From a virus: a stretch of 44,299 nucleotides of DNA. Location: the IMG/VR virus record IMGVR_UViG_3300029854_000006; one strand, 5' to 3'. This document shows, in pieces, positions 1,455-44,299 of this stretch. The notes under the pieces are model-generated. The model searched no databases. It worked only from the letters and a program-made list of their open reading frames with translations, and was not told where the DNA came from. Each line of letters starts with the position of its first letter. The first letter of the stretch is position 1. The translations under genes were made by a program, and so were the position numbers.

Positions 1455-2134
1455 GTGACCCAACCGCCATAGAGGCGGACAAAGTAAAGGAGGAAATGAC
1501 AATGGCAACCATCATCAAGCAGACGAAAGAGGAAATCAACTGGGCGGAGATCGCCAGGGCCAGGGAGCTGGGCGCACTGGACAAACTGCTGGCGGAGCGG
1601 GATGTGATCCGCTTCAACCTGCGGAGCGGCGCAGAGGCGGCCATCATGGTGGAAAAGGTGGAACCGGGCCGGGCCTGGATGGGATTTGTGGACGGCGTGG
1701 CAGAGCGGCCCATGTATAACCGCCTGGCGCGTCCTGTGTCCTGGAAAGAGAGCGACGCCCGGAAATGGTGCAACACCGATCTGATCCAGGATCTCCCGGA
1801 GGATCTGGTGTCCATCATCACCCACCGCACCATCCGCCAGACCATCAAGGGCGAGGAGCTGGTGACCACGGATCTGCTGTGGCTGCACAGCGTAACGGAG
1901 TTTTTTGGGCGAAAGCCCTGGGCAGATGGGGACGATCCAACGGAGGAGCAACTGCCGGTCTACAAGACCGAGCGGGACCGCGTGAAGATGTGGAACGGGG
2001 AAACCTGGCCGCACCACACCCGTTCCGCCAATGCGGGCACCAGCTACTATTTCTGCCGTGTCAACACGGACGGCACGCCCGGCAACTACTACGCGGACAT
2101 TTCAAGGGCGCTTGCCCCCGGCTTTTGGATCTAA
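1451..2134 (+). CDS. DGR target protein 2 (C-terminal variable region; CLec/DUF6273-like fold inferred)
   Basis: ATGA overlap with the upstream ORF; alternative start at 1502 with an AAGGAGG RBS. The C-terminus HTRSANAGTSYYFCRVNTDGTPGNYYADISRALAPGFWI matches the TR-encoded peptide. Confidence 0.85.
   Translation: MSDPTAIEADKVKEEMTMATIIKQTKEEINWAEIARARELGALDKLLAERDVIRFNLRSGAEAAIMVEKVEPGRAWMGFVDGVAERPMYNRLARPVSWKESDARKWCNTDLIQDLPEDLVSIITHRTIRQTIKGEELVTTDLLWLHSVTEFFGRKPWADGDDPTEEQLPVYKTERDRVKMWNGETWPHHTRSANAGTSYYFCRVNTDGTPGNYYADISRALAPGFWI
2018..2126 (+). repeat. DGR variable repeat VR2
   Basis: Gap-free alignment to TR 37588-37696. There are 10 mismatches, 9 at TR adenines and 1 T->G (TR 37628 / 2058). 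Confidence 0.9.
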
Positions 2135-2896: not shown

Positions 2897-3261
2897 TGCT
2901 GCGATTAAAAGCGAATAAAACCGCCCTGTACAAGCTGGTGGCGGATTATGTGGACAACCTCCCGCCCATGCGGAGCGGGACAGAGTTCATTAAATACCCG
3001 CGCACACCGGACTACGCCCTGAACTGGATCACCCCGGAATGGAACACGGCCCACGCCTTTTTCTCCACCTGTATGGGCCGCCCCCTCCTATCCATTGAGA
3101 TCCGGGACGGAGAAACCGGAAAGGCGGCGAGCCGCACCACCTATTCCCTGACCATCCGGGATCTCCGGGAGCGGGGCATGGTGGAGGAGTTCGTGACGGC
3201 GGCGGAGCGCCGGCGGATAGAAAGGAGTGCCGACAATGGCGGACTTTCTCCCGCTACCTGA
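2896..3261 (+). CDS. Hypothetical protein
   Basis: ATG at 2896 overlaps the upstream stop (TAATG). In-frame part of track ORF 2734-3261. Confidence 0.55.
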   Translation: MLRLKANKTALYKLVADYVDNLPPMRSGTEFIKYPRTPDYALNWITPEWNTAHAFFSTCMGRPLLSIEIRDGETGKAASRTTYSLTIRDLRERGMVEEFVTAAERRRIERSADNGGLSPAT

Positions 3262-3820
3262 AAAGGAATACAGCGTAATTTATGCGGATCCCCCATGGGA
3301 GTACCGCCAGCACGGGACCACGGAAAAGAGCCGGGGCACGGCGCTGAAACAGTACCCAACCATGACCACCGCGGATATATGCGATCTGCCGGTGCGGAAA
3401 GTCTGCGGGGGGGCAGTCTGTTTTCTATGGGCGACTTTCCCAAACATTGCCGAGGGGATCAGGGTCCTGGAGGCGTGGGGGTTTCAGTACAAGACCGCGG
3501 CCTTTGTGTGGGTGAAGAAAAACGCCAAGAGCGGCACCAACTTTTGGGGCATGGGCGCCTACACCCGCGCCAACGCGGAGGTGTGCCTGCTGGGTGTTTC
3601 ACCTGGGTTTAAGGCAAAGGAGAGGATCCGCAGCCACAAGGTACACCAGATCATTGAGGCCCCGTTTGAGGGGCACAGCAAAAAGCCGGACGAAACCCGC
3701 CGGCGGATCGTGGAGCTGCTGGGGGATGTGCCCCGCCTGGAAATGTTCGCCCGCCAGAGGGCGGAGGGCTGGGACGCCTGGGGAAATGAAGCGCCGGAAG
3801 ATATGCAAGGAGGATCGTAA
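3236..3820 (+). CDS. MT-A70 family N6-adenine DNA methyltransferase
   Basis: DPPW motif (VIYADPPWEY) near the N-terminus. The ~195-aa size and layout are typical of phage MT-A70/Dam-like enzymes. RBS aaaggag is 8 nt upstream. Confidence 0.8.
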   Translation: MADFLPLPEKEYSVIYADPPWEYRQHGTTEKSRGTALKQYPTMTTADICDLPVRKVCGGAVCFLWATFPNIAEGIRVLEAWGFQYKTAAFVWVKKNAKSGTNFWGMGAYTRANAEVCLLGVSPGFKAKERIRSHKVHQIIEAPFEGHSKKPDETRRRIVELLGDVPRLEMFARQRAEGWDAWGNEAPEDMQGGS

Positions 3821-32352: not shown

Positions 32353-32651
32353 ATATTTCACCTTTTGATTTTCAACTGCAATTCACATTTGCCAATGACG
32401 CCATGGCGGAGCTGGACCGAAAGCTGGCCTTGCTTTACTCCACAAGGGAGGGAACCATGCCACTGGATCGGGAATTTGGGATCAACATGGATTTTGTAGA
32501 CATGCCGCCGGAGGTGGCAAAGAGCCTTTACACGGCGGAGATCACGAAAAAGACGGCCCAATTCATCCCGGAGGTGCGGGTGCAGTCCGTCCAATGGACC
32601 CATGGCGGCGAGGGCGTATTTTATCCCAAGGTGGTGATTACAAGTGCCTGA
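32349..32651 (+). CDS. Baseplate wedge protein (gpW/gp25-like)
   Basis: 100 aa upstream of gpJ. LLYSTREGTMPLDREFGI pattern. Confidence 0.7.
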   Translation: MNISPFDFQLQFTFANDAMAELDRKLALLYSTREGTMPLDREFGINMDFVDMPPEVAKSLYTAEITKKTAQFIPEVRVQSVQWTHGGEGVFYPKVVITSA

Positions 32652-33798
32652 CATGTCAGCAATCGAGAACACGCCGGAAATCAGTTTTATTGACAATAAG
32701 ACGGTGGAAGATGTGCGCAGCGAAATGGTGGCCGATTATGAGGAACACATGACGCAGGCCCAGGGCGTGACTGTTTCCCTGGACCGTGCCAGCGTCCACC
32801 GCATGATCCTGTACGCCGCGGCGGCGCAGATCTACCAGGCCATGCAGTACATAGACCGGCAGGGAAAGCAAAGCCTATTGAAATACAGCTATTCCGACTA
32901 CCTGGACAATCTGGCGCTTTTTAAGGGCGTCACCAGAAGCCCAGCCACGGCGGCAACCTGTACCCTGCGCTTTACCCTGGCGGCGGAGCGGGAAACGGCA
33001 ACGGCCATCCCGCAAGGCACCAGGGTGGCGTCCTCCGGGTCCGTGTACTTTGCCACGGACGAATACGCGGAGATCCCACCAGGCGGCACCGAGGTGGAGG
33101 TGGCGGCCACATGCACCGAAACCGGAAGCGCCGGAAACGGCCTGACCGCCGGGGAACTGTCCACCATGGTGGATCCCGTCCCCTATGTGGCCAGCGTAAC
33201 CAATACCGCGACCACGGAGGGCGGGGCGGAGATCGAGAGCGACGCGGACCTGGCGGAGCGGGTTTTCCTGGCACCCGGCGCCTATTCCACGGCGGGACCG
33301 GAGGACGGCTACCTGTACCACGCCAAGGCGTACAGCCCGGCTATTGGGGATGTGGTGGCCACCAGCGACCAGGAGGCCGGAACGGTGGACATTGTTTTCA
33401 TCATGGCGGATGGGGCAAAGCCTGGGCTGGAAATGATCAACGGGCTAAAGGGCTATCTGCAAGACAAGACGATCCGGCCCATGACGGATCTGGTCAATGT
33501 ATCGGCCCCGGAGGAAGTCCAGTACACCATCAACATGACCTATTACATCAACCGGAGCGACAGCGCCAAAGCCGTGACCATCCAGGCGGCGGTGGCCAAG
33601 GCCGTGGCGGATTATCAGACCTGGCAGCGTGCCATTGGACGGGACATAAACCCCTCCAAGCTGGTGGCCATGGTCATGGAGGCCGGGGCCAAGCGGGTGA
33701 CCGTGACGGCCCCAGCATACACCGCCGTGGCGGCCACCAAGGTGTCCGCCCTCCAGGAAGAGGCCACCGTGACCTATGGAGGGCTGGAGGATGATTAA
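32644..33798 (+). CDS. Baseplate J-like protein
   Basis: 384 aa. Synteny is W-J-I. Typical N-terminal FIDNKTVEDVRSEMVADYE. Confidence 0.8.
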   Translation: MPDMSAIENTPEISFIDNKTVEDVRSEMVADYEEHMTQAQGVTVSLDRASVHRMILYAAAAQIYQAMQYIDRQGKQSLLKYSYSDYLDNLALFKGVTRSPATAATCTLRFTLAAERETATAIPQGTRVASSGSVYFATDEYAEIPPGGTEVEVAATCTETGSAGNGLTAGELSTMVDPVPYVASVTNTATTEGGAEIESDADLAERVFLAPGAYSTAGPEDGYLYHAKAYSPAIGDVVATSDQEAGTVDIVFIMADGAKPGLEMINGLKGYLQDKTIRPMTDLVNVSAPEEVQYTINMTYYINRSDSAKAVTIQAAVAKAVADYQTWQRAIGRDINPSKLVAMVMEAGAKRVTVTAPAYTAVAATKVSALQEEATVTYGGLEDD

Positions 33799-34444
33799 AC
33801 TTTCCGGGAGCCGCTTTACAGACATTATGCCGGAAAACCTGGCCAGCCAGGCGGAGGTCCAGGCGATTGCCTACGCTGTGGGGCGACAGGTGGAAAAACT
33901 GTGCGCCTATTCCGACGCAGCCAGGACCTATGCGGCCATTGCCACCATGCCGGAGTGGCTGCTGGATTACATGGCCGTGGAACTACGCACACCGTCCTAT
34001 GATGAAAACTATTCTGTCAAGACCAAGCGGGCACTGATCGAGGGGTCCCTGTTGTTTTACACACAGATGGGCACCCCGGCGGCGGTCAACCGGATTATTG
34101 AAACCATCTTTGAAACCGGGTACATCGAGGAGTGGTACGAGTACGACGGCGATCCGCACCATTTCCGGGCCTATGTGGGGGACGGCGGCGAGGTAGGGCC
34201 GGGAGAGCTGGAGGAGTTCCGGCGGGTCCTGGCCTCTGTCAAGCGCCTTTCATCCTGGCTGGATGATATTATCACCATTTCACAGATGGATCCGGCGGCC
34301 CTGACCATAACAGGCGCCATGGGGCGGGGCTACATGTCCACCGCCCTGCCGGCGGCGCCCATGGACTACGGCATGGAGGCCCCGATCCGAGCGGGCGGGG
34401 TTTTCGGAACCATCACACAGACCGCCATACCGGCGGCGGAGTAA
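33791..34444 (+). CDS. Tail protein I (P2 gpI-like)
   Basis: The ATG at 33791 overlaps the gpJ stop. The protein begins MIKLSGSRFTDIMPENLASQAEVQAIAYAV. Confidence 0.7.
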   Translation: MIKLSGSRFTDIMPENLASQAEVQAIAYAVGRQVEKLCAYSDAARTYAAIATMPEWLLDYMAVELRTPSYDENYSVKTKRALIEGSLLFYTQMGTPAAVNRIIETIFETGYIEEWYEYDGDPHHFRAYVGDGGEVGPGELEEFRRVLASVKRLSSWLDDIITISQMDPAALTITGAMGRGYMSTALPAAPMDYGMEAPIRAGGVFGTITQTAIPAAE

Positions 34445-34456
34445 GAGGAGGCAACC

Positions 34457-36970
34457 ATGTTTTACGGATTTGTCATTACAGAGGCCGGCAACAATCTGCT
34501 GGCCAAAATGGTGGCCGGCGACAAGCTGACCATTACCAAGGTGGTCATGGACAAGGGCACGGCGGAGAGCGCGGAGGCCGCCCGGAAGCTGACCGCCCCC
34601 ATTGACCCAGGCCCAAACGGCACCAGCACCGTGCCCACGGTGGAGGGCGCCGCCGTCAACATGCTGGTGGAATACCGCAGCGACCTGAACGGCGGATTAC
34701 AGGAGGGTTTCTGGATCGGCGGTTTTGCCGTGTTCGGCAAGGTAGAGAACGGGGCCGAAACCATGATTTATTATGGGTCCATGGGAGAACAAAAGCAGTA
34801 TGTGAGCGCCTATGTGGAGGGAACCGCCCCGGATGTGCGCCGCTACCCCGTTTCCATCACCGTGACCGCCGGCGTGGAGGTAGAGGTGTCCTATCCTGCG
34901 GAGGCATGGATGACTGCCGAGGAGGTGGCGGAATACTTCAACGGGACCCTAAAGCCGGAGCTGGAGGAGAGCCTGGGCGGCCTGATCAAAACACACAACG
35001 AGGATCAAAACGCCCATAACGGTGCCCTGAAAGACAAGCAGGACGCCATCAAGGTGGAGGGCCTGCTGAAAGGGACCAAGACCGCCGGCGAGGGCGGGGA
35101 CACCTACACCGTAGGCGCGGCCACACCGGGCACCGACTACCAGCAGCCCACCAACAAGCTGACGCCGGCGGAGGCCATGACCACACAGGACTTTATCCCG
35201 TTCTATGACCACGACAGCGGCCAGCACATGCGGGCCACGCTCCAGAGCCTGAAAGAGGCCATCGGCGTGCAAAGCCCCACCATCAAGGTGACCACCTGCG
35301 CCGGCGCGTCTGTGACCTGTTCGGACGGGGAAACCACCCTGGAGGGCACGGGATCCACGGAGTTTGAGCTGCCCTATGTGGGGGACTGGACCGTGACCGC
35401 CTCCCTGGGCGGAGCAAACGCCAGCCAAGTGGTGGATGTGAGCGGCGCCCTGCTGTACGAGGTGGATCTGATGATCACCAGCGGCATTGCCGTGACCGCC
35501 CAGCCCAGCAAAAAGACCTATTACATCGGGGAGGCATTTGACCCGGCAGGCATGGTGGTAACTGCTACCTTTGCGGATGACACCACCGAAAATGTGACAA
35601 ACGACTGCACTTTCTCCCCTGTCACCATTTCCAAGGGCACAACGGCCATCACGGTGAACTACCAGCGGGCGGGGATCAAGAAAACCGCCAGCGTGCCGGT
35701 GACGGTGCGGGTGCTGTCCAGCATTGCGATCACAACCGCCCCCGCAAAGACGGCGTACAAATACGGGGAGATCTTCAACCCCTCCGGCATGGTGGTGACG
35801 GCCCACTACACAGACGGCCAGAGCCGGACGGTGACCGGGTACACATTCTCCCCCGACACGGCCCTGGGCATGAGCAACACCACCATTACGATCTCCTATA
35901 CGGAGGGGGATGTGACCAAGACCACAACCCAGGCCATCACGGTGGCCAAGGTGCTGGACCGTATCGCCGTCACAACGCCACCCAGCCGGACCAGCTATTT
36001 TTCCGGGGAGAGTTTCAGCACCTCCGGCATGGTGGTGACCGCCTATTACACCGATGACAGCAGCGCGGCGGTGAGCGGGTACACCTATTCCCCCACCGGC
36101 GCCCTGGCGGCGGGAAACAAAACGATCACCATTTCGTACAGCGAGGGCGGCGTGACTAAGACCACCACGCAAGCAATCACGGTGACCACGATCAGCACAA
36201 CGCTGAACTCCAACAGCTGGGCCACCATCAAGGCGGTTTCTGACGCTGGACAGGGGGACAATTACTGGGATGTGGGCGACACAAAGACCATCACCATCAA
36301 TGGAACGGTGCAGGGCTTTACATTCTCCAACCTGTCCATTGCTGTCTTTATCCTGGGTTTCAACCACAACAGCAGCCGCGAGGGAAGCAACCGGATCCAT
36401 TTCCAGATCGGGAAGATCTCCAGCAAGCTGGTGGGCCTGTGTGATAACAGTTACGGCAGCTATGTATCAAGCGGTTTCTGTATGAATACCAGCCGGACCA
36501 ACTCCGGCGGATGGAATGGCAGCTACATGCGAAAAACCGTACTGGGCAATAGCGGGACCCCATCCAGCCCGCCGGCCAACTCCCTGCTGGCGGCCCTGCC
36601 GGCAGACCTCCGGGCTGTGATGAAGCCGATCACAAAATATAGTGACAACACCGGAGGCGGGAACAATACGGCCAGCTATGTGACTGCCACCACGGATTAT
36701 TTAACCCTGCTGGCAGAGTTTGAATACCACGGCAGCCGGAGCTACGCCAACAGCGCGGAGCAGAACTACCAAAAGCAGTATGACTATTACAAGGCGGGAA
36801 ACAGCAAGGTGCATTACAGGCACGACAACACGGGATCGGCGGTCTTTGCGTGGACCCGTTCCGCCTATGCGGGCGGCAGCAGCATTTTCTGCCTTGTCAG
36901 CACGGCTGGCACGCCCGGCAGCACCAACGCGGACTCTTCAAGGGCGCTTGCCCCCGGCTTTGCCGCCTAA
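34457..36970 (+). CDS. Tail fibre: collar-like N-terminus, three Ig-like repeats, C-terminal DGR-diversified ligand-binding domain
   Basis: 837 aa after gpI. The C-terminus FAWTRSAYAGGSSIFCLVSTAGTPGSTNADSSRALAPGFAA is encoded by VR1. Confidence 0.9.
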   Translation: MFYGFVITEAGNNLLAKMVAGDKLTITKVVMDKGTAESAEAARKLTAPIDPGPNGTSTVPTVEGAAVNMLVEYRSDLNGGLQEGFWIGGFAVFGKVENGAETMIYYGSMGEQKQYVSAYVEGTAPDVRRYPVSITVTAGVEVEVSYPAEAWMTAEEVAEYFNGTLKPELEESLGGLIKTHNEDQNAHNGALKDKQDAIKVEGLLKGTKTAGEGGDTYTVGAATPGTDYQQPTNKLTPAEAMTTQDFIPFYDHDSGQHMRATLQSLKEAIGVQSPTIKVTTCAGASVTCSDGETTLEGTGSTEFELPYVGDWTVTASLGGANASQVVDVSGALLYEVDLMITSGIAVTAQPSKKTYYIGEAFDPAGMVVTATFADDTTENVTNDCTFSPVTISKGTTAITVNYQRAGIKKTASVPVTVRVLSSIAITTAPAKTAYKYGEIFNPSGMVVTAHYTDGQSRTVTGYTFSPDTALGMSNTTITISYTEGDVTKTTTQAITVAKVLDRIAVTTPPSRTSYFSGESFSTSGMVVTAYYTDDSSAAVSGYTYSPTGALAAGNKTITISYSEGGVTKTTTQAITVTTISTTLNSNSWATIKAVSDAGQGDNYWDVGDTKTITINGTVQGFTFSNLSIAVFILGFNHNSSREGSNRIHFQIGKISSKLVGLCDNSYGSYVSSGFCMNTSRTNSGGWNGSYMRKTVLGNSGTPSSPPANSLLAALPADLRAVMKPITKYSDNTGGGNNTASYVTATTDYLTLLAEFEYHGSRSYANSAEQNYQKQYDYYKAGNSKVHYRHDNTGSAVFAWTRSAYAGGSSIFCLVSTAGTPGSTNADSSRALAPGFAA
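35474..36184 (+). repeat. Three tandem Ig-like domain repeats within the fibre gene (78-80 aa each)
   Basis: Units 35474-35707, 35708-35944 and 35945-36184. Each reads IA(V/I)T..P.K..Y..GE.F...GMVVTA.Y.D...V.....SP........T.I.Y......K.....ITV. Confidence 0.8.
36837..36961 (+). repeat. DGR variable repeat VR1
   Basis: 125-nt gap-free alignment to TR 37571-37695. There are 17 mismatches, 16 at TR adenines and 1 C->T (TR 37641 / 36907). Confidence 0.92.
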
Positions 36971-36995
36971 TCGCCGCAGCATATCCGGCCCCAAT

Positions 36996-37018
36996 CCCGT
37001 CCCGCGGAAGCGGGCGGG
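36996..37018 (+). promoter_or_regulatory. GC hairpin with GGAA tetraloop downstream of VR1 (putative DGR target-recognition hairpin)
   Basis: cccg-t-cccgc GGAA gcggg-cggg forms 9 bp with one bulge, 34 nt after the VR1 end. Confidence 0.55.
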
Positions 37019-37057
37019 ATGACCAGAGCGCAGAAACCAAGAGAGGAGGACACCACC

Positions 37058-37516
37058 GTGTCCGTTTTGAAAGAGAAACGCACCACCAGCAAGGCGGAGT
37101 ATGTGAACACAGCAAACCAGATCTATGTGAAAACCGTGGATTTTCTTTCGCGGCTGTCCGCCCGATACTCCCGGCTGATCGCGGCGGACACCTCACACCT
37201 GGCCGGGCAGGTCATGGACCACGCGGAGCAGGCAAACAAGATCTTTCCGTCCGACGGGCAGAGAAAGGAACTGCGGAAAGCGCACCACCTGGAGGCCCTG
37301 GGCGCCCTGTCCGCCCTGGATGTGCGCCTGACCCACTGCTATGAAATCCTGTACTGCAACCCGCAGGGCGCTTTCACCGACAACAAGGGAAAGAGCGTGG
37401 CGCCCAGGGAGGCCATGGAGCGGCTGGACCGCATGGCCCAGGAGCTGGGGGAGCTGATCGACCAGGAGGAAACCCTGCTGCGGAACATCATGGAGAGCGA
37501 TAAGAAACGAAAATAG
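37058..37516 (+). CDS. avd: DGR accessory variability determinant (Avd-like helical bundle protein)
   Basis: GTG 7 nt after gaggagga. ~150-aa helical, basic protein located between the target gene and TR. The call is mostly positional. Confidence 0.6.
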   Translation: MSVLKEKRTTSKAEYVNTANQIYVKTVDFLSRLSARYSRLIAADTSHLAGQVMDHAEQANKIFPSDGQRKELRKAHHLEALGALSALDVRLTHCYEILYCNPQGAFTDNKGKSVAPREAMERLDRMAQELGELIDQEETLLRNIMESDKKRK

Positions 37517-37570
37517 GTCATAACTGGGTGTATTTCTGAACAAGTGCCGTGCGGCAGGGCGACACTCCGG

Positions 37571-37696
37571 CGGCGGTCAATGCGTGGACCCGTTCCGCCA
37601 ATGCGGGCAACAGCAACAATTTCTGCCTTGTCAACACGGACGGCACGCCCAACAACAACAACGCGGACAATTCAAGGGCGCTTGCCCCCGGATTTT
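37571..37696 (+). repeat. DGR template repeat (TR)
   Basis: Non-coding copy of the VR sequence. In the target frame it carries 11 AAY codons (…NAWTRSANAGNSNNFCLVNTDGTPNNNNADNSRALAPGF). Confidence 0.92.
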
Positions 37697-37965
37697 ATAG
37701 AATGGGTTGAAAGCGGACGCCAGGCGCGTCCCGAACCCGTATAAAAGGAGAAATACTTCCCTGGGTGTAAATCCCTAAAACTGCGCCGCTTGGGAGAGCG
37801 GCATAGGGTATAACCCACGAAAATGGCCGATACCCTATCTTTTGAAGCCTTTACACGGACGCTTTTTGCATGGCGGGTGATGTGCCTTACCCCGTTTCAT
37901 GTGTCGAGGCAAAGCAGATTAGACGGCACCCTACAATTTATCTGCACGAAAGGCGAATACCAATT
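37697..37965 (+). ncRNA. TR-RT spacer, probable structured part of the DGR RNA
   Basis: 269 nt with no convincing ORF. Hairpins are ggacgc/gcgtcc (37715-37731), gccgc/gcggc (37785-37802) and tagggtat/ataccCta (37804-37837). Confidence 0.4.
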
Positions 37966-39123
37966 ATGACAAGTCAAGAGCGCCGGGAGGCGCGATACCA
38001 ACGCCGCAAGGCGCGGCGGAGAAGAAACAGGCAGGCCCGCAGCGACGGCCTGGGCGGGCTGGCGGGCGTTTTCAGCTACCGGAACATGTTCAAGTACGGG
38101 AAAAAGTGCTGCAACGGCGTGCGCTGGAAAGGATCTACACATAACTTTGAGCTGCACCTGTTTTCCGGCACGGCCAAGCGGCGGCGCAGGATCCTGGACG
38201 GGAAATGGAGGCCGGGAAAAACCATCCGCTTTCCCCTGCGGGAGCGGGGAAAGTTTCGGACCATCGACGCACCGCACATCACGGACCGACAGATCCACAA
38301 GGTTTTCACCAGGGAGGTGCTGGCGCCGCTCTACTGCCCCAGCATGATCTATGACAACGGGGCAAGCCAAAAGGGAAAGGGCCTGCACTTTCATTTCCAG
38401 AGGCTAAAGGAACAGCTGCGCTGGCATTACCGGCGGCACGGGCGGCAGGGCGCCATCATGCTGGCGGATTTCCACCACTTTTTCCCGGACGCGCCACACG
38501 CGCTGCTGTATGAACGGCACCGGCGCCTGATCCTGGACCAGGACCTGCGGGCGCTGGCGGATCTGATGGTGGCGGCGGTGCCGGGCGAGGTGGGCATGTA
38601 CCTGGGCGTGGAGCCGAGCCAGCAGGAAATGGTGGCCCTGCCCTCCTATCTGGACAACTGGATGAAATGCCAGCTTTCCCTCCACGGCATGGGCCACTAT
38701 ATGGATGATTACAACGCGATCCTGGAGGGTACGGAGCAGGCGGAGAGGGTCCTGGCGGAAATGATCCGCCGGGCGGCGGAAAAGGGACTGACGATCAACC
38801 GGAACAAATGCCATGTGATCAGCCTGGACAAGCCTTTCCGTTTCTGCAAAGCCAAGTTTCAGATTTTGCCCAGCGGGCGGGTCATCACCCACGGCTGCCG
38901 GGACGGCATGAAGCGGGCGCGGCGGAAAATGCGATATTTCCGCAAGCAGGTGGACGCCGGGGAAAAGACCGTGGAGCAGGTGGCGGAATGGCTGAAAGGT
39001 CCAATCGCCTACTATGAGCAATTCAACGACCATGGGCGGGTGCTGAAACTGCGCCGCCTGTATTACGCCCTGTTCATCAAGGGCAGGAAAACAGAGGAGG
39101 TAAAACCATGTATCGGATCGTAA
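37966..39123 (+). CDS. DGR reverse transcriptase
   Basis: 385 aa from the internal ATG (track ORF 37870-39123). LGVEPSQ matches the DGR-specific [ILV]GxxxSQ motif. YMDD catalytic motif. Confidence 0.9.
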   Translation: MTSQERREARYQRRKARRRRNRQARSDGLGGLAGVFSYRNMFKYGKKCCNGVRWKGSTHNFELHLFSGTAKRRRRILDGKWRPGKTIRFPLRERGKFRTIDAPHITDRQIHKVFTREVLAPLYCPSMIYDNGASQKGKGLHFHFQRLKEQLRWHYRRHGRQGAIMLADFHHFFPDAPHALLYERHRRLILDQDLRALADLMVAAVPGEVGMYLGVEPSQQEMVALPSYLDNWMKCQLSLHGMGHYMDDYNAILEGTEQAERVLAEMIRRAAEKGLTINRNKCHVISLDKPFRFCKAKFQILPSGRVITHGCRDGMKRARRKMRYFRKQVDAGEKTVEQVAEWLKGPIAYYEQFNDHGRVLKLRRLYYALFIKGRKTEEVKPCIGS

Positions 39124-39806
39124 AAGACGGGGCAAAGCTGGCGCTGATCGAGGCCCCCAGCTATGTGCGGAAGGCCGAAAACGGGTGCTTTGTGCTGTGC
39201 CAGGAGGCGGAAGCAACGGGGATCGCCCATAACGGCACCGTGTACCACCTGCTGGGCCGGGAGGCACTGGAGGGCGCGGAGAGCGTGATCTTGGAGGCGG
39301 CGGACGCGGGCGCGGAGATCCAGACCACAAAGGAAAGCACGGCCAACAATGCCAAGCTGTCCGGCCAGCTGTCCGCGGCGGCACGCCTGTATGTCCAAAC
39401 GGCGGCGGATGTGCCGGACGAAACGGCGCTGGAAATGCCGGATCTGTTCAAGACCTGGGAGGAGGTCCTGGCAGAGGGCAAAACCGTGGCGGAAAACTCC
39501 ATCATCAACGACGGCGGCACCCTGTACCGCGTCGTGTCACCCGGCGGCGTACTCCCCCAGGCGCACCAGCCGCCCCATGGTGAGGGTATGCTGGCGGTGT
39601 ACCGGCCCATTGATACGGTCCACGCAGGCACCCAGGAGGACCCGATCCCGTGGGTGTACGGCATGGACTGCACCAATGGCCTGTATTACTCCTATAACGC
39701 CACTGTGTACCTTTGCAAGGCGGATATGAAGCCGTGCGTATGGGCGCCCGGCACCGCTGGCCTGTGGCAATGGGAGGCCGTGGACGCCATGGAAGCGGAG
39801 GCGTAA
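39108..39806 (+). CDS. Hypothetical protein with CBM5/12-like aromatic C-terminus
   Basis: 232 aa. The C-terminus YYSYNATVYLCKADMKPCVWAPGTAGLWQWE resembles small carbohydrate-binding modules. It overlaps the RT stop. Confidence 0.5.
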   Translation: MYRIVKDGAKLALIEAPSYVRKAENGCFVLCQEAEATGIAHNGTVYHLLGREALEGAESVILEAADAGAEIQTTKESTANNAKLSGQLSAAARLYVQTAADVPDETALEMPDLFKTWEEVLAEGKTVAENSIINDGGTLYRVVSPGGVLPQAHQPPHGEGMLAVYRPIDTVHAGTQEDPIPWVYGMDCTNGLYYSYNATVYLCKADMKPCVWAPGTAGLWQWEAVDAMEAEA

Positions 39807-39809
39807 CCA

Positions 39810-40211
39810 ATGAGCCGGAGATACATTGTAAAGCAGAGGGCCAGGATCGACACCATCACCGGCCCGGTCAATCTCCCATACGGCACAGAGGTGGAAGCCG
39901 TGGGCGATTACCTGACCCACCAGGGGAACCGGCTGTGTGCGGTGACCAGCCGAAAGGCACACCTGTATTTTGCACCGGATGATGACGGACAGGGACGGGA
40001 ACGGGGCGCCCTAACCATGGCCATCACCAGGCGGCTGGAGAAGCGGGACAGGGACCATCAACGGCGCTGGGATCTGGCGTGGGAGGATCCCGTGTGCCAG
40101 AAACACCGGAACCTGGAGCATGAGGATCACTTCCTATGGGGGCACACATTTTACGAGGCCCCGGTGGAGGATCTGCGGCACATTGCCGCCCTGATCGGCG
40201 CAAGGGGGTGA
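39810..40211 (+). CDS. Hypothetical protein
   Basis: 133-aa ORF. Confidence 0.5.
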   Translation: MSRRYIVKQRARIDTITGPVNLPYGTEVEAVGDYLTHQGNRLCAVTSRKAHLYFAPDDDGQGRERGALTMAITRRLEKRDRDHQRRWDLAWEDPVCQKHRNLEHEDHFLWGHTFYEAPVEDLRHIAALIGARG

Positions 40212-40216
40212 CGGCC

Positions 40217-40387
40217 ATGGACAACACAAAGCTGGTGGCGGAGCTGTGCGCCATCATTGACCGGATGAATGTACTTTTGCAGGCCCAGGCCGTGGAGCTG
40301 GCCCAGCTCCACGCGCTCCAGCATGAGGAGGAGATCGCGGCGGTCCGCCGGGACTATGCCCAGGCCATTGGGGAGGTGCGGCCATGA
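40217..40387 (+). CDS. Small coiled-coil hypothetical protein
   Basis: 56 aa from the internal ATG of track ORF 40136-40387. Confidence 0.4.
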   Translation: MDNTKLVAELCAIIDRMNVLLQAQAVELAQLHALQHEEEIAAVRRDYAQAIGEVRP

Positions 40388-40803
40388 CTATGGAGGAGAT
40401 CGCCACCGGCGGCGGGATCCTGCTGGCGGCCATGACACTAATCCAGATTGCACCGATCAAACTAAATCCATGGTCCGCGCTGGCAAAAGCCATTGGGCGG
40501 GCAATCAACGGAGAAGTGATCACAAAGGTGGACCGGCTGGAGCGGGAACTGCTGGGCATGAAAGAAAATCTGGAGGAGCGGGACGCGATCAGCTGCCGGG
40601 CCAGGATCCTGCATTTCGGGGATGAAACCATCCACGGGGTACGGCATACAAAAGAACACTTTGACCAGATCCTGCGGGACATTACCACCTATGAGCGATA
40701 TTGCGACGATCACCCGAATTTTGAAAACAATACCACAGTGCTGACCTCCCGGAGGATCAAGGATATTTATGAGGACTGCCTGAAAACGGCGGACTTTCTG
40801 TGA
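40384..40803 (+). CDS. N-terminally membrane-anchored hypothetical protein (lysis-module associated)
   Basis: 139 aa. TM GGGILLAAMTLIQIAPI followed by a coiled coil. ATGA overlap. Confidence 0.5.
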   Translation: MTMEEIATGGGILLAAMTLIQIAPIKLNPWSALAKAIGRAINGEVITKVDRLERELLGMKENLEERDAISCRARILHFGDETIHGVRHTKEHFDQILRDITTYERYCDDHPNFENNTTVLTSRRIKDIYEDCLKTADFL

Positions 40804-41232: not shown

Positions 41233-41245
41233 GGAGGGGTTACCA

Positions 41246-42235
41246 ATGACAGAGAACCAACTGCGGCAGAAAGTTGCCGACATTATCAACGCATGGGTGG
41301 GCGCCACCAAGGGCAGCGCCAAGCACCTGGAGATCCTGGAGATCTACAACGGCCACAAGCCACTGGCCCGCGGCTACAAAATGCAGGTGAAAGACGCCTA
41401 TTGCGCGGCCACGGTGAGCGCGGCATACATAAAGGCCGGGATCGCGGAGTACACCGGGACCGAGTGCGGCGTGGAGAAGTTCGTGCAGATCGCAAAGAAC
41501 AAAGGCATTTGGGTGGAGAATGACGCCCATTTCTGCCATGTGGGCGGTGCCTGCGTGTATGACTGGGACGACACCGGGAAAGGCGACTGCACCGGAGCCG
41601 GGGATCATATCGGCATTGTGACCCAGGTAAACAGCGCGGCGGGCACCTTTGTGGTGACAGAGGGCAACATGAGCGGCGGAAAGGTGGGAAAGCGTACCAT
41701 GGCCATCAACGGGAAGTATATTCGCGGGTTTATCTGCCCGGATTTCGCCGCTATTGCCAAGAAACTGGGCGGGACCTCCGGGGGAACGGACACAGCGGGC
41801 GGCCCTACCATTTACACGGTGAAATCCGGGGACACCCTTTCCAAGATTGCAAGCACCTACGGCACCACCGTGGACACCATGGTGGAGATTAACGCCATTC
41901 AAAACAAGAACCTGATCCGGGTAGGCCAGGTGCTTATGCTCCAGGACACAGCCCAGGCGGCGGCGGATAAGCTGGAGGAACTGGGGGTGATCAATTCCCC
42001 GGACTACTGGGCGGACGCGGCGGAGGCCGGAAAGGTGCAATACCTGGAGATCCTGCTGAAAAAGGTTGCGCAGATCATCACAAAGGCCGGAACCCGCACC
42101 GACACGCCGGAGCAGGGTGTGGCCGCCCTGGTGGCCGCTGGAGTGATCAACACACCGGACTATTGGTTGGCCAACTACGACACATTCCCATCCCTGGACC
42201 TGCTGCTGTGCGCCCTGGGTGGGGCTGTGAAATAA
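41246..42235 (+). CDS. Endolysin: CHAP-like peptidase + LysM + two SPDYW repeats
   Basis: ATG after aaggagggg. Catalytic Cys context DAYCAATVS and His GDHIGIV. Lys[30 protein letters not shown]. Repeats [13 protein letters not shown] and [13 protein letters not shown]. Confidence 0.8.
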
Positions 42236-44200: not shown

Positions 44201-44299
44201 GAGAAAGAGAGGCTGCCCCATGAAAGGATATAGACACCTGACAGAGCATGACAGAAACAAAATTGCAAAGATGAAAAAAGAGGGGGCGACCATGCGGGA
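44201..44299. repeat. Terminal direct repeat, copy B
   Basis: Exact copy of bases 1-99. It restarts the transposase ORF (ATG at 44220). Confidence 0.95.

Follow-up and report, generated by a model that had tools for sequence, protein, structure and literature searches.

Among the closest described systems, a DGR with two DUF6273 targets has already been published for phages of Faecalibacterium (PMC11792537), and the combination described here is not new. As described there in 2024, the prophages Lelie and CP11, which are phages of gut Clostridia like ours, possess one DGR with two variable regions, a large and a small target, DUF6273 in both of them and the variable repeat (VR) at its C-terminus, while the accessory gene, the RT-2 RNA and the target hairpins considered below are without discussion in that paper. 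Lelie and CP11 were absent among the nucleotide matches of our cassette and are likened to it by their published description. For two other Faecalibacterium phages, Roos and Pioen, DGR activity was shown at read level (PMC11792537). The domain DUF6273 itself has been called C-lectin-like in published work. Of the RT motifs in the original paper of Weinberg et al. in 2017 (PMC5737381), only RT-10, that of BPP-1, was tied to DGRs, and a role of the other RT motifs was merely speculated on.

The stretch analysed here (the window, 44,299 nucleotides; all features are given on the + strand) is circular, with a terminal direct repeat of 99 nt. In our reading, which we hold with high confidence, it carries the DGR of a circular, approximately 44.2-kb temperate myophage from gut Oscillospiraceae that diversifies two genes. 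The first-pass annotation had described a complete DGR in the BPP-1 order, and as a whole its reading is supported: every element it named is present in that order, but it had missed another variable repeat (VR2), which lies in a second target, as well as the RT-2 structured RNA and the target-site hairpins.

Target gene 1 (34457-36970) encodes an 837-aa protein in tail-fibre position, preceded directly upstream by Baseplate_J (32644-33798) and then Tail_P2_I (33776-34444). Its N-terminal part without family match is followed by three Big_3 stretches (Pfam), in agreement with the three Ig-like repeats noted earlier, and by a DUF6273-type domain at the C-terminus, whose end is the first variable repeat, VR1. 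The DUF6273 match is weak (18.5 bits, under the Pfam cutoff of 23.5), and homologues of the C-terminal 264 aa of the fibre carry PF19789. The model of this domain matched none of the C-type-lectin structures and, being weak over the VR (pLDDT below 50), could not confirm the fold of that type expected in the first pass.

VR1 (36837-36961) forms the 3' end of the fibre gene and aligns over 125 nt with the template repeat (TR, 37571-37695; 31 adenines), as delimited from TR/VR alignments. The ungapped comparison at an offset of 734 reproduced the 17 mismatches reported previously. The earlier count of 16 at TR adenines was likewise reproduced, but one of these, A37692/C36958 (GGATTT/GGCTTT), is not a product of mutagenesis: judged by the alignments, it is a fixed, IMH/IMH*-type difference that marks TR and VR, because C occurs in every VR1 and VR2 displayed, with A in every TR displayed. 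The single C->T mismatch (TR C37641 to VR T36907), also known from the first pass, is a synonymous third-base change in a codon whose A was changed as well (GAC->GCT); together with T37628->G in VR2 it makes up the total of two non-adenine differences from TR. In the fibre frame TR reads AVNAWTRSANAGNSNNFCLVNTDGTPNNNNADNSRALAPGF and, on recounting, holds the 11 AAY codons claimed for it, its adenines being distributed over codon positions 1, 2 and 3 as 16, 13 and 2. The 3' end of VR1 (36942-36961; GGGCGCTTGCCCCCGGCTTT) combines a GC-rich run free of A with the fixed C36958, and from the IMH/IMH* of BPP-1 (PMC3240598) we infer an IMH-like role for it. A search for a sigma-70-like promoter of the TR RNA gave none.

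The gap between TR and the reverse transcriptase (RT) gene is filled by a structured spacer, RT-2 RNA (Rfam RF03077; 37702-37974), which overlaps the RT start codon and scores 110 bits over the full model length (gathering score 40). The same RNA was found at the same place in eight of nine relatives tested, and the copy in the window carries a 54-nt insertion at 37785-37838. The RT (37966-39123; 385 aa, RVT_1) has an Arg-rich N-terminus and both motifs listed in the first pass, LGVEPSQ (as YLGVEPSQ, of the [LIV]GxxxSQ type) and YMDD. The one PDB entry that the RT matches in sequence is bRT, the DGR enzyme of BPP-1 (8ub7, E 8e-7), with [LIV]GxxxSQ and YMDD aligned, and its 50 bits against the group II intron RT model fall far below the cutoff of 300 bits, which bears out the assignment to DGR enzymes.

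Since the window is circular, VR2 lies approximately 6.5 kb downstream of the RT (approximately 36 kb in the prophage); the RT and the small target are 6.5 kb apart also in the L013/L121 contig. Target gene 2 (1451-2134) encodes a small DUF6273-only protein of 227 aa from ATG 1451 (44.5 bits, cutoff 23.5), although its true start may be ATG 1502, 8 nt after AAGGAGG; this gene and the RT are conserved in the same phages. VR2 (2018-2125) ends this gene and matches TR 37588-37695, the identity extending one base more, to 37696. Of the 10 mismatches, nine fall at TR adenines, including the fixed A37692/C, and the tenth is T37628->G2058. In L106/L082, L107/L084 and L115/L010, the non-A polymorphisms of the TR recur in the VR2 that belongs to it, and between the window and L104, 18 of 47 mismatches fall inside VR2, 16 of these at A. 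From these patterns we read VR2 as a live target. In the prophage of strain AM07-15 VR2 shows six non-A mismatches to its own TR, and it is therefore not re-homed in every lineage.

Both variable repeats are followed by the same kind of sequence features. A conserved CTAATC holds the stop codon TAA of the fibre gene (36967-36972), and another that of target gene 2 (2131-2136); across the family, nearly all copies of VR1 and VR2 have CTAAT/CTAAC 5-6 nt past GGCTTT. Beginning 33 nt past the end of VR1 is a hairpin/cruciform, a candidate target site (36994-37020; ATCCCG-T-CCCGC GGAA GCGGGCGGGAT), with a GC-rich stem, a one-base bulge and a GGAA tetraloop (DNA fold -19.5 kcal/mol, z -2.0). With equal spacing, a hairpin follows VR2 (2158-2179; TCC-A-GCCCC CGCAA GGGGCGGA, with the 5-nt loop CGCAA); it is present in the fold, although the 76-nt stretch as a whole folds with no better energy than shuffles. 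At the VR2 loci of relatives this hairpin is conserved with a GCAA loop. An equivalent hairpin stands after nearly every VR of the family, in 14 distinct stems that covary, with both-side changes at six of six stem pairs, and with loops that are mostly GNRA tetraloops. These hairpins match the published features of DGR targets, namely GC-rich stems of 7-10 bp with GRNA loops, 4-34 bp from the VR (PMC3240598).

Across 57 distinct pairs in relatives, 857 of 881 TR/VR1 mismatches fall at TR adenines, and a chance origin of the pattern is thereby excluded. The heterogeneity of the VRs, which the first-pass annotation had tied to TR adenines, was examined among near-identical genomes sharing the same TR, whose VRs differ almost only at these sites. 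L004, with an identical TR and 99% identity to the window over 4.6 kb, has 17 of its 47 mismatches inside the 125-nt VR1, 16 of them at TR-A sites (binomial p 3e-15; Fisher p 7e-11). In L081 the RT is 99% identical, the TR is identical and VR1 is different again, the differences from the window lying at TR-adenine sites except for the synonymous C->T at 36907, which is peculiar to the window. Different VRs over the same TR in near-identical relatives argue for recent activity, and on this genome-to-genome comparison the DGR is apparently active. It is unlikely that the element was once active and is now decayed or dormant in this phage, with the VR/TR differences as fossils and VR2 as an orphan. 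Decay could account for the two non-adenine mismatches, for the AM07-15 VR2 and its disagreement with its own TR, and for the 54-nt insertion, which lowers the RT-2 score to 110 bits where most relatives reach 145-181; moreover, the published relatives Lelie, Lagaffe_CP and CP11 were without read-level variation (PMC11792537). However, all ORFs are intact, VR2 equals the window's TR at all non-A sites but one, and L081 possesses the 54-nt insertion and the same TR, yet a VR1 different at TR-adenine sites, so that homing must have taken place after the insertion arose.

The ORF in the Avd position (accessory gene, 37058-37516; 152 aa) starts at GTG 37058 and not at ATG 37019, because all of its 1276 homologues begin with MSVLK. 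It had been taken for a helical, basic Avd; its predicted fold is indeed helical and Avd-like, but the protein is only mildly basic (pI 8.5, below the 9.5 +/- 0.7 reported for Avd, PMC5758913) and no sequence relation to Avd was detected (hhalign probability 0.3%; no PF05635 or bAvd homology). Its AlphaFold2 model is a four-helix bundle (pLDDT 90) with 2GSC, a PF05635 representative, as the top match in PDB (Foldseek E 0.047), an Avd-family protein according to PMC10053308; in BFVD, Avd-like proteins occupy ranks 2-5, 8 and 13. A tail-fibre assembly chaperone, like gene G, which follows fibre gene H in P2-like phages, could be expected directly 3' of the fibre gene in such a P2-like baseplate/fibre module, and the lack of sequence similarity to Avd, the PHROGs entry of the family as of unknown function, the commonness of four-helix bundles and the weak Foldseek E-values (0.047 in PDB) would all suit it. 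We nevertheless consider a chaperone very unlikely, as Avd-family proteins are the best structural matches (probability 0.97-1.0) in each of two independent libraries and the gene follows the RT clade and not one fibre type: it is present at 85 of 102 RT loci (43-99% identity), among them the locus of Taranis, which has another protein, of 546 aa, as its target and an Arc-like gene intercalated. In 15 of the 17 loci without the gene, the RT lies within approximately 700 nt of a contig end. The accessory protein is thus predicted to be Avd-like in position and fold only, and not in sequence.

By analogy with BPP-1, the RNA of TR and the RT-2 spacer would be bound by the RT together with the accessory protein, and cDNA synthesis, self-primed from the spacer, would copy TR faithfully except opposite adenines. 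The cDNA would then replace VR1 or VR2, the A-free GC-rich IMH-like end setting the 3' junction and homing being made more efficient by the small-looped GC hairpin downstream. Up to approximately 1e17 fibre-tip variants would be possible, and this variation presumably tracks changes in host-surface receptors. That it arises instead by recombination or gene conversion among cassettes (VR1, VR2, TR, co-infecting phages) is extremely improbable, since such exchange, although compatible with the identical 3' end of all three repeats, the visibly mosaic spacer and small target of relatives and a recurrent T->G at one site that could spread by conversion, cannot confine 97% of the 881 differences to TR adenines or create new bases there while TR stays invariant.

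With the BPP-1 DGR (mtd-avd-TR-brt), this mutagenic cassette shares the order target, accessory gene, TR, spacer RNA and RT, a receptor-binding tail protein (here one in tail-fibre position) with the VR at its 3' end, the adenine-specific pattern in AAY codons, the GC-rich IMH-like VR end, a GC hairpin with a 4-nt loop downstream of the VR, and an RT with [LIV]GxxxSQ and YMDD. It differs in an accessory protein that is no detectable homologue of bAvd or PF05635, in a DUF6273 target without profile similarity to Mtd, in the second target, in the Arg-rich N-terminal and the C-terminal extensions of the RT, in its host, a Gram-positive-type anaerobe, and in the spacer RNA, which is RF03022 (Phage_DGR) in BPP-1 and RT-2 here, at the same position. 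Compared with RT-2 as entered in Rfam (PMC5737381), the RNA is placed here, in the window and eight of nine relatives, between TR and a DGR RT, and the window copy has its 54-nt insertion. The gut phages nd4/nd12 also have two DGR targets ('tentaclins'; PMC10743442, 2023), but there DUF6273 is N-terminal in target 1 and followed by Ig domains, whereas in our target 1, a gene at the tail-fibre position, the Ig domains precede a C-terminal DUF6273. Finally, the Faecalibacterium phages Taranis, Roos and Pioen, together with Dulem virus 34 and MT835543, share the cassette at 68-73% nucleotide similarity and in the same order (DUF6273 target, 152-153-aa accessory gene, TR, RT-2 RNA, RT), but on different phage backbones and with different target N-terminal parts; a single VR is reported in each of Roos, Pioen and Taranis, and Taranis carries the extra Arc-like gene between target and accessory gene.

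The template repeat (TR, 37571-37695) and VR1 (36837-36961), the variable repeat that ends the gene in the tail-fibre position, pair without gaps over 125 nt at an offset of 734. They differ at 17 positions, 16 of them with an adenine in TR, exactly as the first-pass annotation had it when it proposed a complete DGR (fibre VR1-Avd-TR-RT) at 36837-39123. The lone non-adenine mismatch, TR C37641 to VR T36907, is a synonymous third base in a codon whose adenine has also been changed. Read in the fibre frame, TR holds 11 AAY codons, a count from that annotation which we reproduced, and its adenines are spread over codon positions 1, 2 and 3 as 16, 13 and 2. A stop codon is unreachable through any A substitution in TR, and about 1e17 protein variants are attainable via its adenines. 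The second variable repeat, VR2 (2018-2125, plus strand), is the counterpart of TR 37588-37695 and departs from it at 10 positions, nine of which are TR adenines, the remaining one being T37628 to G. When both strands of the window were scanned with the TR adenines masked, no VRs other than VR1 and VR2 were found. TR A37692 (in GGATTT) is C in all VR1 and VR2 sequences displayed (36958 and 2122 in the window); judged from these alignments, this position is a fixed marker of the IMH/IMH* type that sets the direction of transfer, and no mutagenised site.

The element combines TR/VR differences at TR adenines, a reverse transcriptase (RT) of the DGR type, a VR ending its target ORF, target-site signals, and VR heterogeneity at TR-A sites between genomes (for VR1, among genomes with identical TRs; such heterogeneity is also seen in VR2). 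We regard it, from sequence comparison, as a complete DGR with two targets that is probably active, and the DGR interpretation of the first-pass annotation is supported. In a search for a promoter of the TR RNA, no sigma-70 site was detected in 36700-39400, a null result that is uninformative because the scan is ill-suited to the promoters of Clostridia phages.

The fibre gene (34457-36970) encodes 837 aa with three Big_3 Ig-like stretches, corresponding to the three Ig-like repeats claimed for it, and a weak C-terminal match to DUF6273 (PF19789; 18.5 bits, under the cutoff of 23.5); its close homologues are annotated as PF19789. The small target ORF (1451-2134, with a start possibly at ATG 1502) ends in VR2 and is made up almost entirely of a DUF6273 domain (44.5 bits against the PF19789 gathering cutoff of 23.5), and across this domain the two targets share 32% identity. 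An AlphaFold2 model of the C-terminal 264 aa of the fibre, built from 40 sequences, had a pLDDT of only 69 and produced zero Foldseek matches in the PDB. A profile search of PDB sequences with this domain was likewise without match, and hhalign against Mtd, the target of Bordetella phage BPP-1, gave a probability of 0.1%. These null results do not refute the C-type-lectin fold that the first-pass annotation expected for this part of the fibre. Positions 1-99 and 44201-44299 of the window form an exact terminal direct repeat of 99 nt, and the identity of the two ends shows that the window was assembled from a circle of about 44,200 bp, with VR2 downstream of the RT by about 6.5 kb. The spacing between RT and small target is 6.5 kb in the contig of a relative (L013/L121) and approx. 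36 kb in the 97% identical prophage of Ruminococcaceae bacterium AM07-15 (RT locus L081, small-target locus L108). A second ORF matching HTH_38 only (1194-1454) lies just upstream of the small target, and an MT-A70-family adenine methyltransferase gene (3227-3820) about 1 kb downstream of it.

The RT ORF (37966-39123) matched Pfam RVT_1. It contains both the LGVEPSQ and the YMDD motifs previously read from the sequence, in register with IGSLTSQ and YMDD of the BPP-1 reverse transcriptase (bRT); [LIV]GxxxSQ is a DGR-specific motif. An origin from a group II intron or a retron was rejected: the group II intron RT model scored 50 bits against a cutoff of 300, the sole PDB sequence match at E<=0.01 was the BPP-1 DGR RT (8ub7, E 8e-7), and Rfam returned no intron or retron RNA. 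The protein also has an arginine-rich N-terminal extension, MTSQERREARYQRRKARRRRNRQARSD (37966-38045), outside the region aligned to bRT.

Relatives of the RT were retrieved from a viral set (77 loci) and a genome set (22 loci) of collections, and a TR/VR pair was present in nearly all of those with sufficient sequence upstream. Among 57 distinct TR/VR1 pairs of these relatives, 857 of the 881 mismatches fell on TR adenines. The TRs of the closest relatives, L081 (the AM07-15 prophage, with an RT 99% identical) and a second locus, L004, are identical to that of the window, and the VR1s of all three nevertheless differ. Over 4.6 kb, L004 is 99% identical to the window. VR1 contains 17 of the 47 mismatches between them, and TR-A sites account for 16 of those in VR1 (p about 1e-15 and 1e-10). 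Differences of VR2 from its relatives are likewise almost confined to TR-A sites. In the three lineages for which both are known, VR2 agrees with its own TR at the non-adenine polymorphisms, as repeated homing predicts. The VR2 of the AM07-15 small target (L108, QUDE01000011.1) has six non-adenine mismatches to its own TR in L081, and at those six sites it matches the TR type of another lineage (L011/L013). This small target therefore looks recombinant, and the pattern suggests that no re-homing has taken place since.

The sole non-adenine difference of VR2, T37628 to G at 2058, converts CTT (Leu) into CGT (Arg) and lies in the TR context TCTGCC[T]TGTCAA (in RNA, UCUGCC[U]UGUCAA). The same change was found at the equivalent site in 9 of the 57 TR/VR1 pairs, in clades whose RT identity is 66-94%, and several VR2s have it too; the VR1 carriers include L010, L017, L020, L030, L031, L074, L083 and L092, and the VR2 carriers include the window itself, L105, L109, L111, L112 and L118. 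It is always T to G, every TR keeps the T, and it accounts for 9-10 of just 24 non-adenine mismatches in the TR/VR1 set. Candidate sources are selection for arginine, gene conversion between VRs and a site-specific error of the RT. That this RT clade has a site-specific non-adenine mutagenic event at TR U37628 seems to us improbable; if the change did arise from the RT, and not from selection or gene conversion, it would represent a programmed non-adenine hotspot in a DGR, and the recurrent site deserves biochemical attention.

VR1 and VR2 share the 3' end GGGCGCTTGCCCCCGGCTTT. Five nucleotides past each of them begins CTAATC (36967-36972 and 2131-2136), which holds the stop codon and is kept 5-6 nt past the VR ends at all related VR loci, in clades that share only 45-55% RT identity. 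As this conservation exceeds the needs of a stop codon, CTAATC may be part of target recognition. Further downstream, a GC hairpin starts 33 nt past the end of each VR, with the loop GGAA after VR1 (36994-37020) and (C)GCAA after VR2 (2158-2179). Equivalent hairpins are located 26-39 nt past nearly every VR1 and VR2 of the relatives, with 14 different stems and loops that are mostly GGAA, GCAA or GAAA. The stems covary, all six of the six inner pairs having changed on both sides; the alignment was anchored on the best hairpin in each sequence, which makes the percentage paired circular, but not the covariation. The VR2 hairpin region as a whole folds no better than shuffled sequences (z -0.15), and support for this hairpin comes from conservation and not from energy. 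In published DGR target sites, the hairpin lies 4-34 bp from the VR and has a GC stem of 7-10 bp and a 4-nt loop of the GRNA type (PMC3240598). The hairpins of the window fit these features, but the GCAA loop is of the GNRA and not the GRNA type.

The spacer between TR and RT is occupied by an RT-2 RNA (Rfam RF03077, 37702-37974), extending from 7 nt past TR to the RT start codon. It scored 110.1 bits with the covariance model against a gathering threshold of 40, with all model positions 1-222 matched, and was detected at the equivalent place in eight of nine relatives tested. The corresponding spacer of BPP-1 differs in being the unrelated Phage_DGR RNA (RF03022). In the paper defining these RT motifs, only RT-10 (BPP-1) was linked to DGRs and the rest were speculated on (PMC5737381); Rfam RT-2, too, can be classed with DGRs, in which it is the equivalent of the spacer RNA of BPP-1. 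A structured insertion of 54 nt in this RNA (37785-37838) recurs only in L081 and is missing from L004, with its identical TR, and from every other relative; the remaining spacer sequence is mosaic between close relatives. The Shine-Dalgarno-like AAAGG of the RT sits in the long-range helix that closes the RT-2 RNA, a position that hints at coupling of RNA folding to RT translation.

Between the fibre gene and TR lies an accessory gene (37058-37516) encoding 152 aa. All of its 1276 homologues at E<=0.001 begin with MSVLK, which places the start at GTG 37058, preceded by AGAGGAGG. The family comprises at least 500 clusters at 50% identity, and we inspected the best 150 of 501 clusters. A mir-7180 match inside the gene was dismissed as noise (22 bits, where the gathering score is 78). 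The product had been described as a helical, basic protein in the Avd position; its helical nature was borne out by the structural model, and its basic character is weakly true, with a pI of 8.5, below the 9.5 +/- 0.7 reported for Avd (PMC5758913).

Membership of Avd by sequence (PF22296/PF05635) was rejected, since every sequence method was negative. The accessory protein had zero matches in Pfam, including the BPP-1 Avd (bAvd) family PF22296, and in NCBIfam, whereas BPP-1 Avd itself matches PF22296 at 123 bits. None of 34 diverse family members matched PF05635 or PF22296 in a Pfam scan; phmmer and two profile searches of PDB sequences returned no Avd; and in hhalign each of two profiles of the family gave a probability of 0.3% with BPP-1 Avd. 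PHROGs places the protein in phrog_30516, of unknown function. With all sequence searches negative, the protein is tied to Avd only by structure comparison. Its AlphaFold2 model (pLDDT 90) consists of four long helices in a four-helix bundle of the Avd topology. The best match among PDB structures was 2GSC (probability 1.0, target-normalised TM 0.74, E 0.047), the structural representative of the Avd-like family PF05635 (PMC10053308). In the viral structure library BFVD, proteins named Avd-like or bAvd-like occupied ranks 2-5, 8 and 13. The E-values of these structure matches are weak (0.01-0.05), and bAvd (4DWL) was absent from the top 50.

The gene is encoded between target and TR and is co-inherited with the RT, being present in 85 of 102 RT loci and always upstream of TR. 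In 15 of the 17 loci without it the contig ends no more than about 700 nt from the RT, the other two being L053 and L066. The locus of Faecalibacterium phage Taranis holds the accessory gene despite a different target protein, which is annotated in RefSeq as a DGR target. We conclude that the accessory protein is very probably the functional counterpart of Avd in this large DGR clade, either as a very remote homologue or as an analogue. The family phrog_30516, which has no Pfam entry, is unannotated, and profile-based tools would score its cassettes as lacking Avd; should the family be a hidden form of Avd, a number of DGRs now counted as Avd-less would be Avd-dependent. Wu et al. found 26-29% of DGRs to be without a recognisable accessory gene (PMC5758913), and a cryptic Avd-like family of this kind may explain some of them.

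The phage is a myovirus, as the first-pass annotation had it, and encodes a tail sheath, tape measure, Baseplate_J, a P2 gpI-like protein, large terminase and portal. Its overall GC content is 59%. The nearest genomes are Oscillospiraceae prophages (Ruminococcaceae bacterium AM07-15 and Dysosmobacter MAGs), and the nearest named phages, with 68-73% over the cassette, are Dulem virus 34 and the Faecalibacterium phages Taranis, Roos and Pioen. Among the ORFs scanned, which cover part of the window, neither a tyrosine nor a serine integrase was found. An IS30-type transposase-like ORF (20-1066; HTH_38 and rve integrase core) begins within the terminal repeat, and its product may act as the phage integrase. 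In the AM07-15 prophage this ORF comes after the lysis module, and some 36 kb separate it from the small target upstream. Three conserved ORFs of unknown function (39108-40803; phrog_27545, 29409 and 37604) lie between the RT and the genes for lysis, which include a LysM/CHAP endolysin (41240-42235); the first of the three shares 16 nt with the end of the RT gene, stop codon included.

As a DGR the element is ordinary, and gut Clostridia phages are known to be DGR-rich. The layout of a DGR with two DUF6273 targets is already published and is not new as a kind: the Faecalibacterium prophages Lelie and CP11 each have a single DGR whose DUF6273 targets are one large and one small protein (PMC11792537), and two DUF6273 targets, of which one is a small protein with a single domain, occur in the gut phages nd4 and nd12 (PMC10743442). 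Neither study discusses the accessory family, RT-2 RNA or hairpins of the window's clade. The value of the system lies in its being a clean, fully delimited example in which every cis element has been mapped: TR, two VRs, the IMH marker, CTAATC, hairpins and spacer RNA. It works like the DGR of BPP-1, from which it differs in the family of its accessory protein, the family of its spacer RNA, the scaffold of its targets and the possession of two of them.
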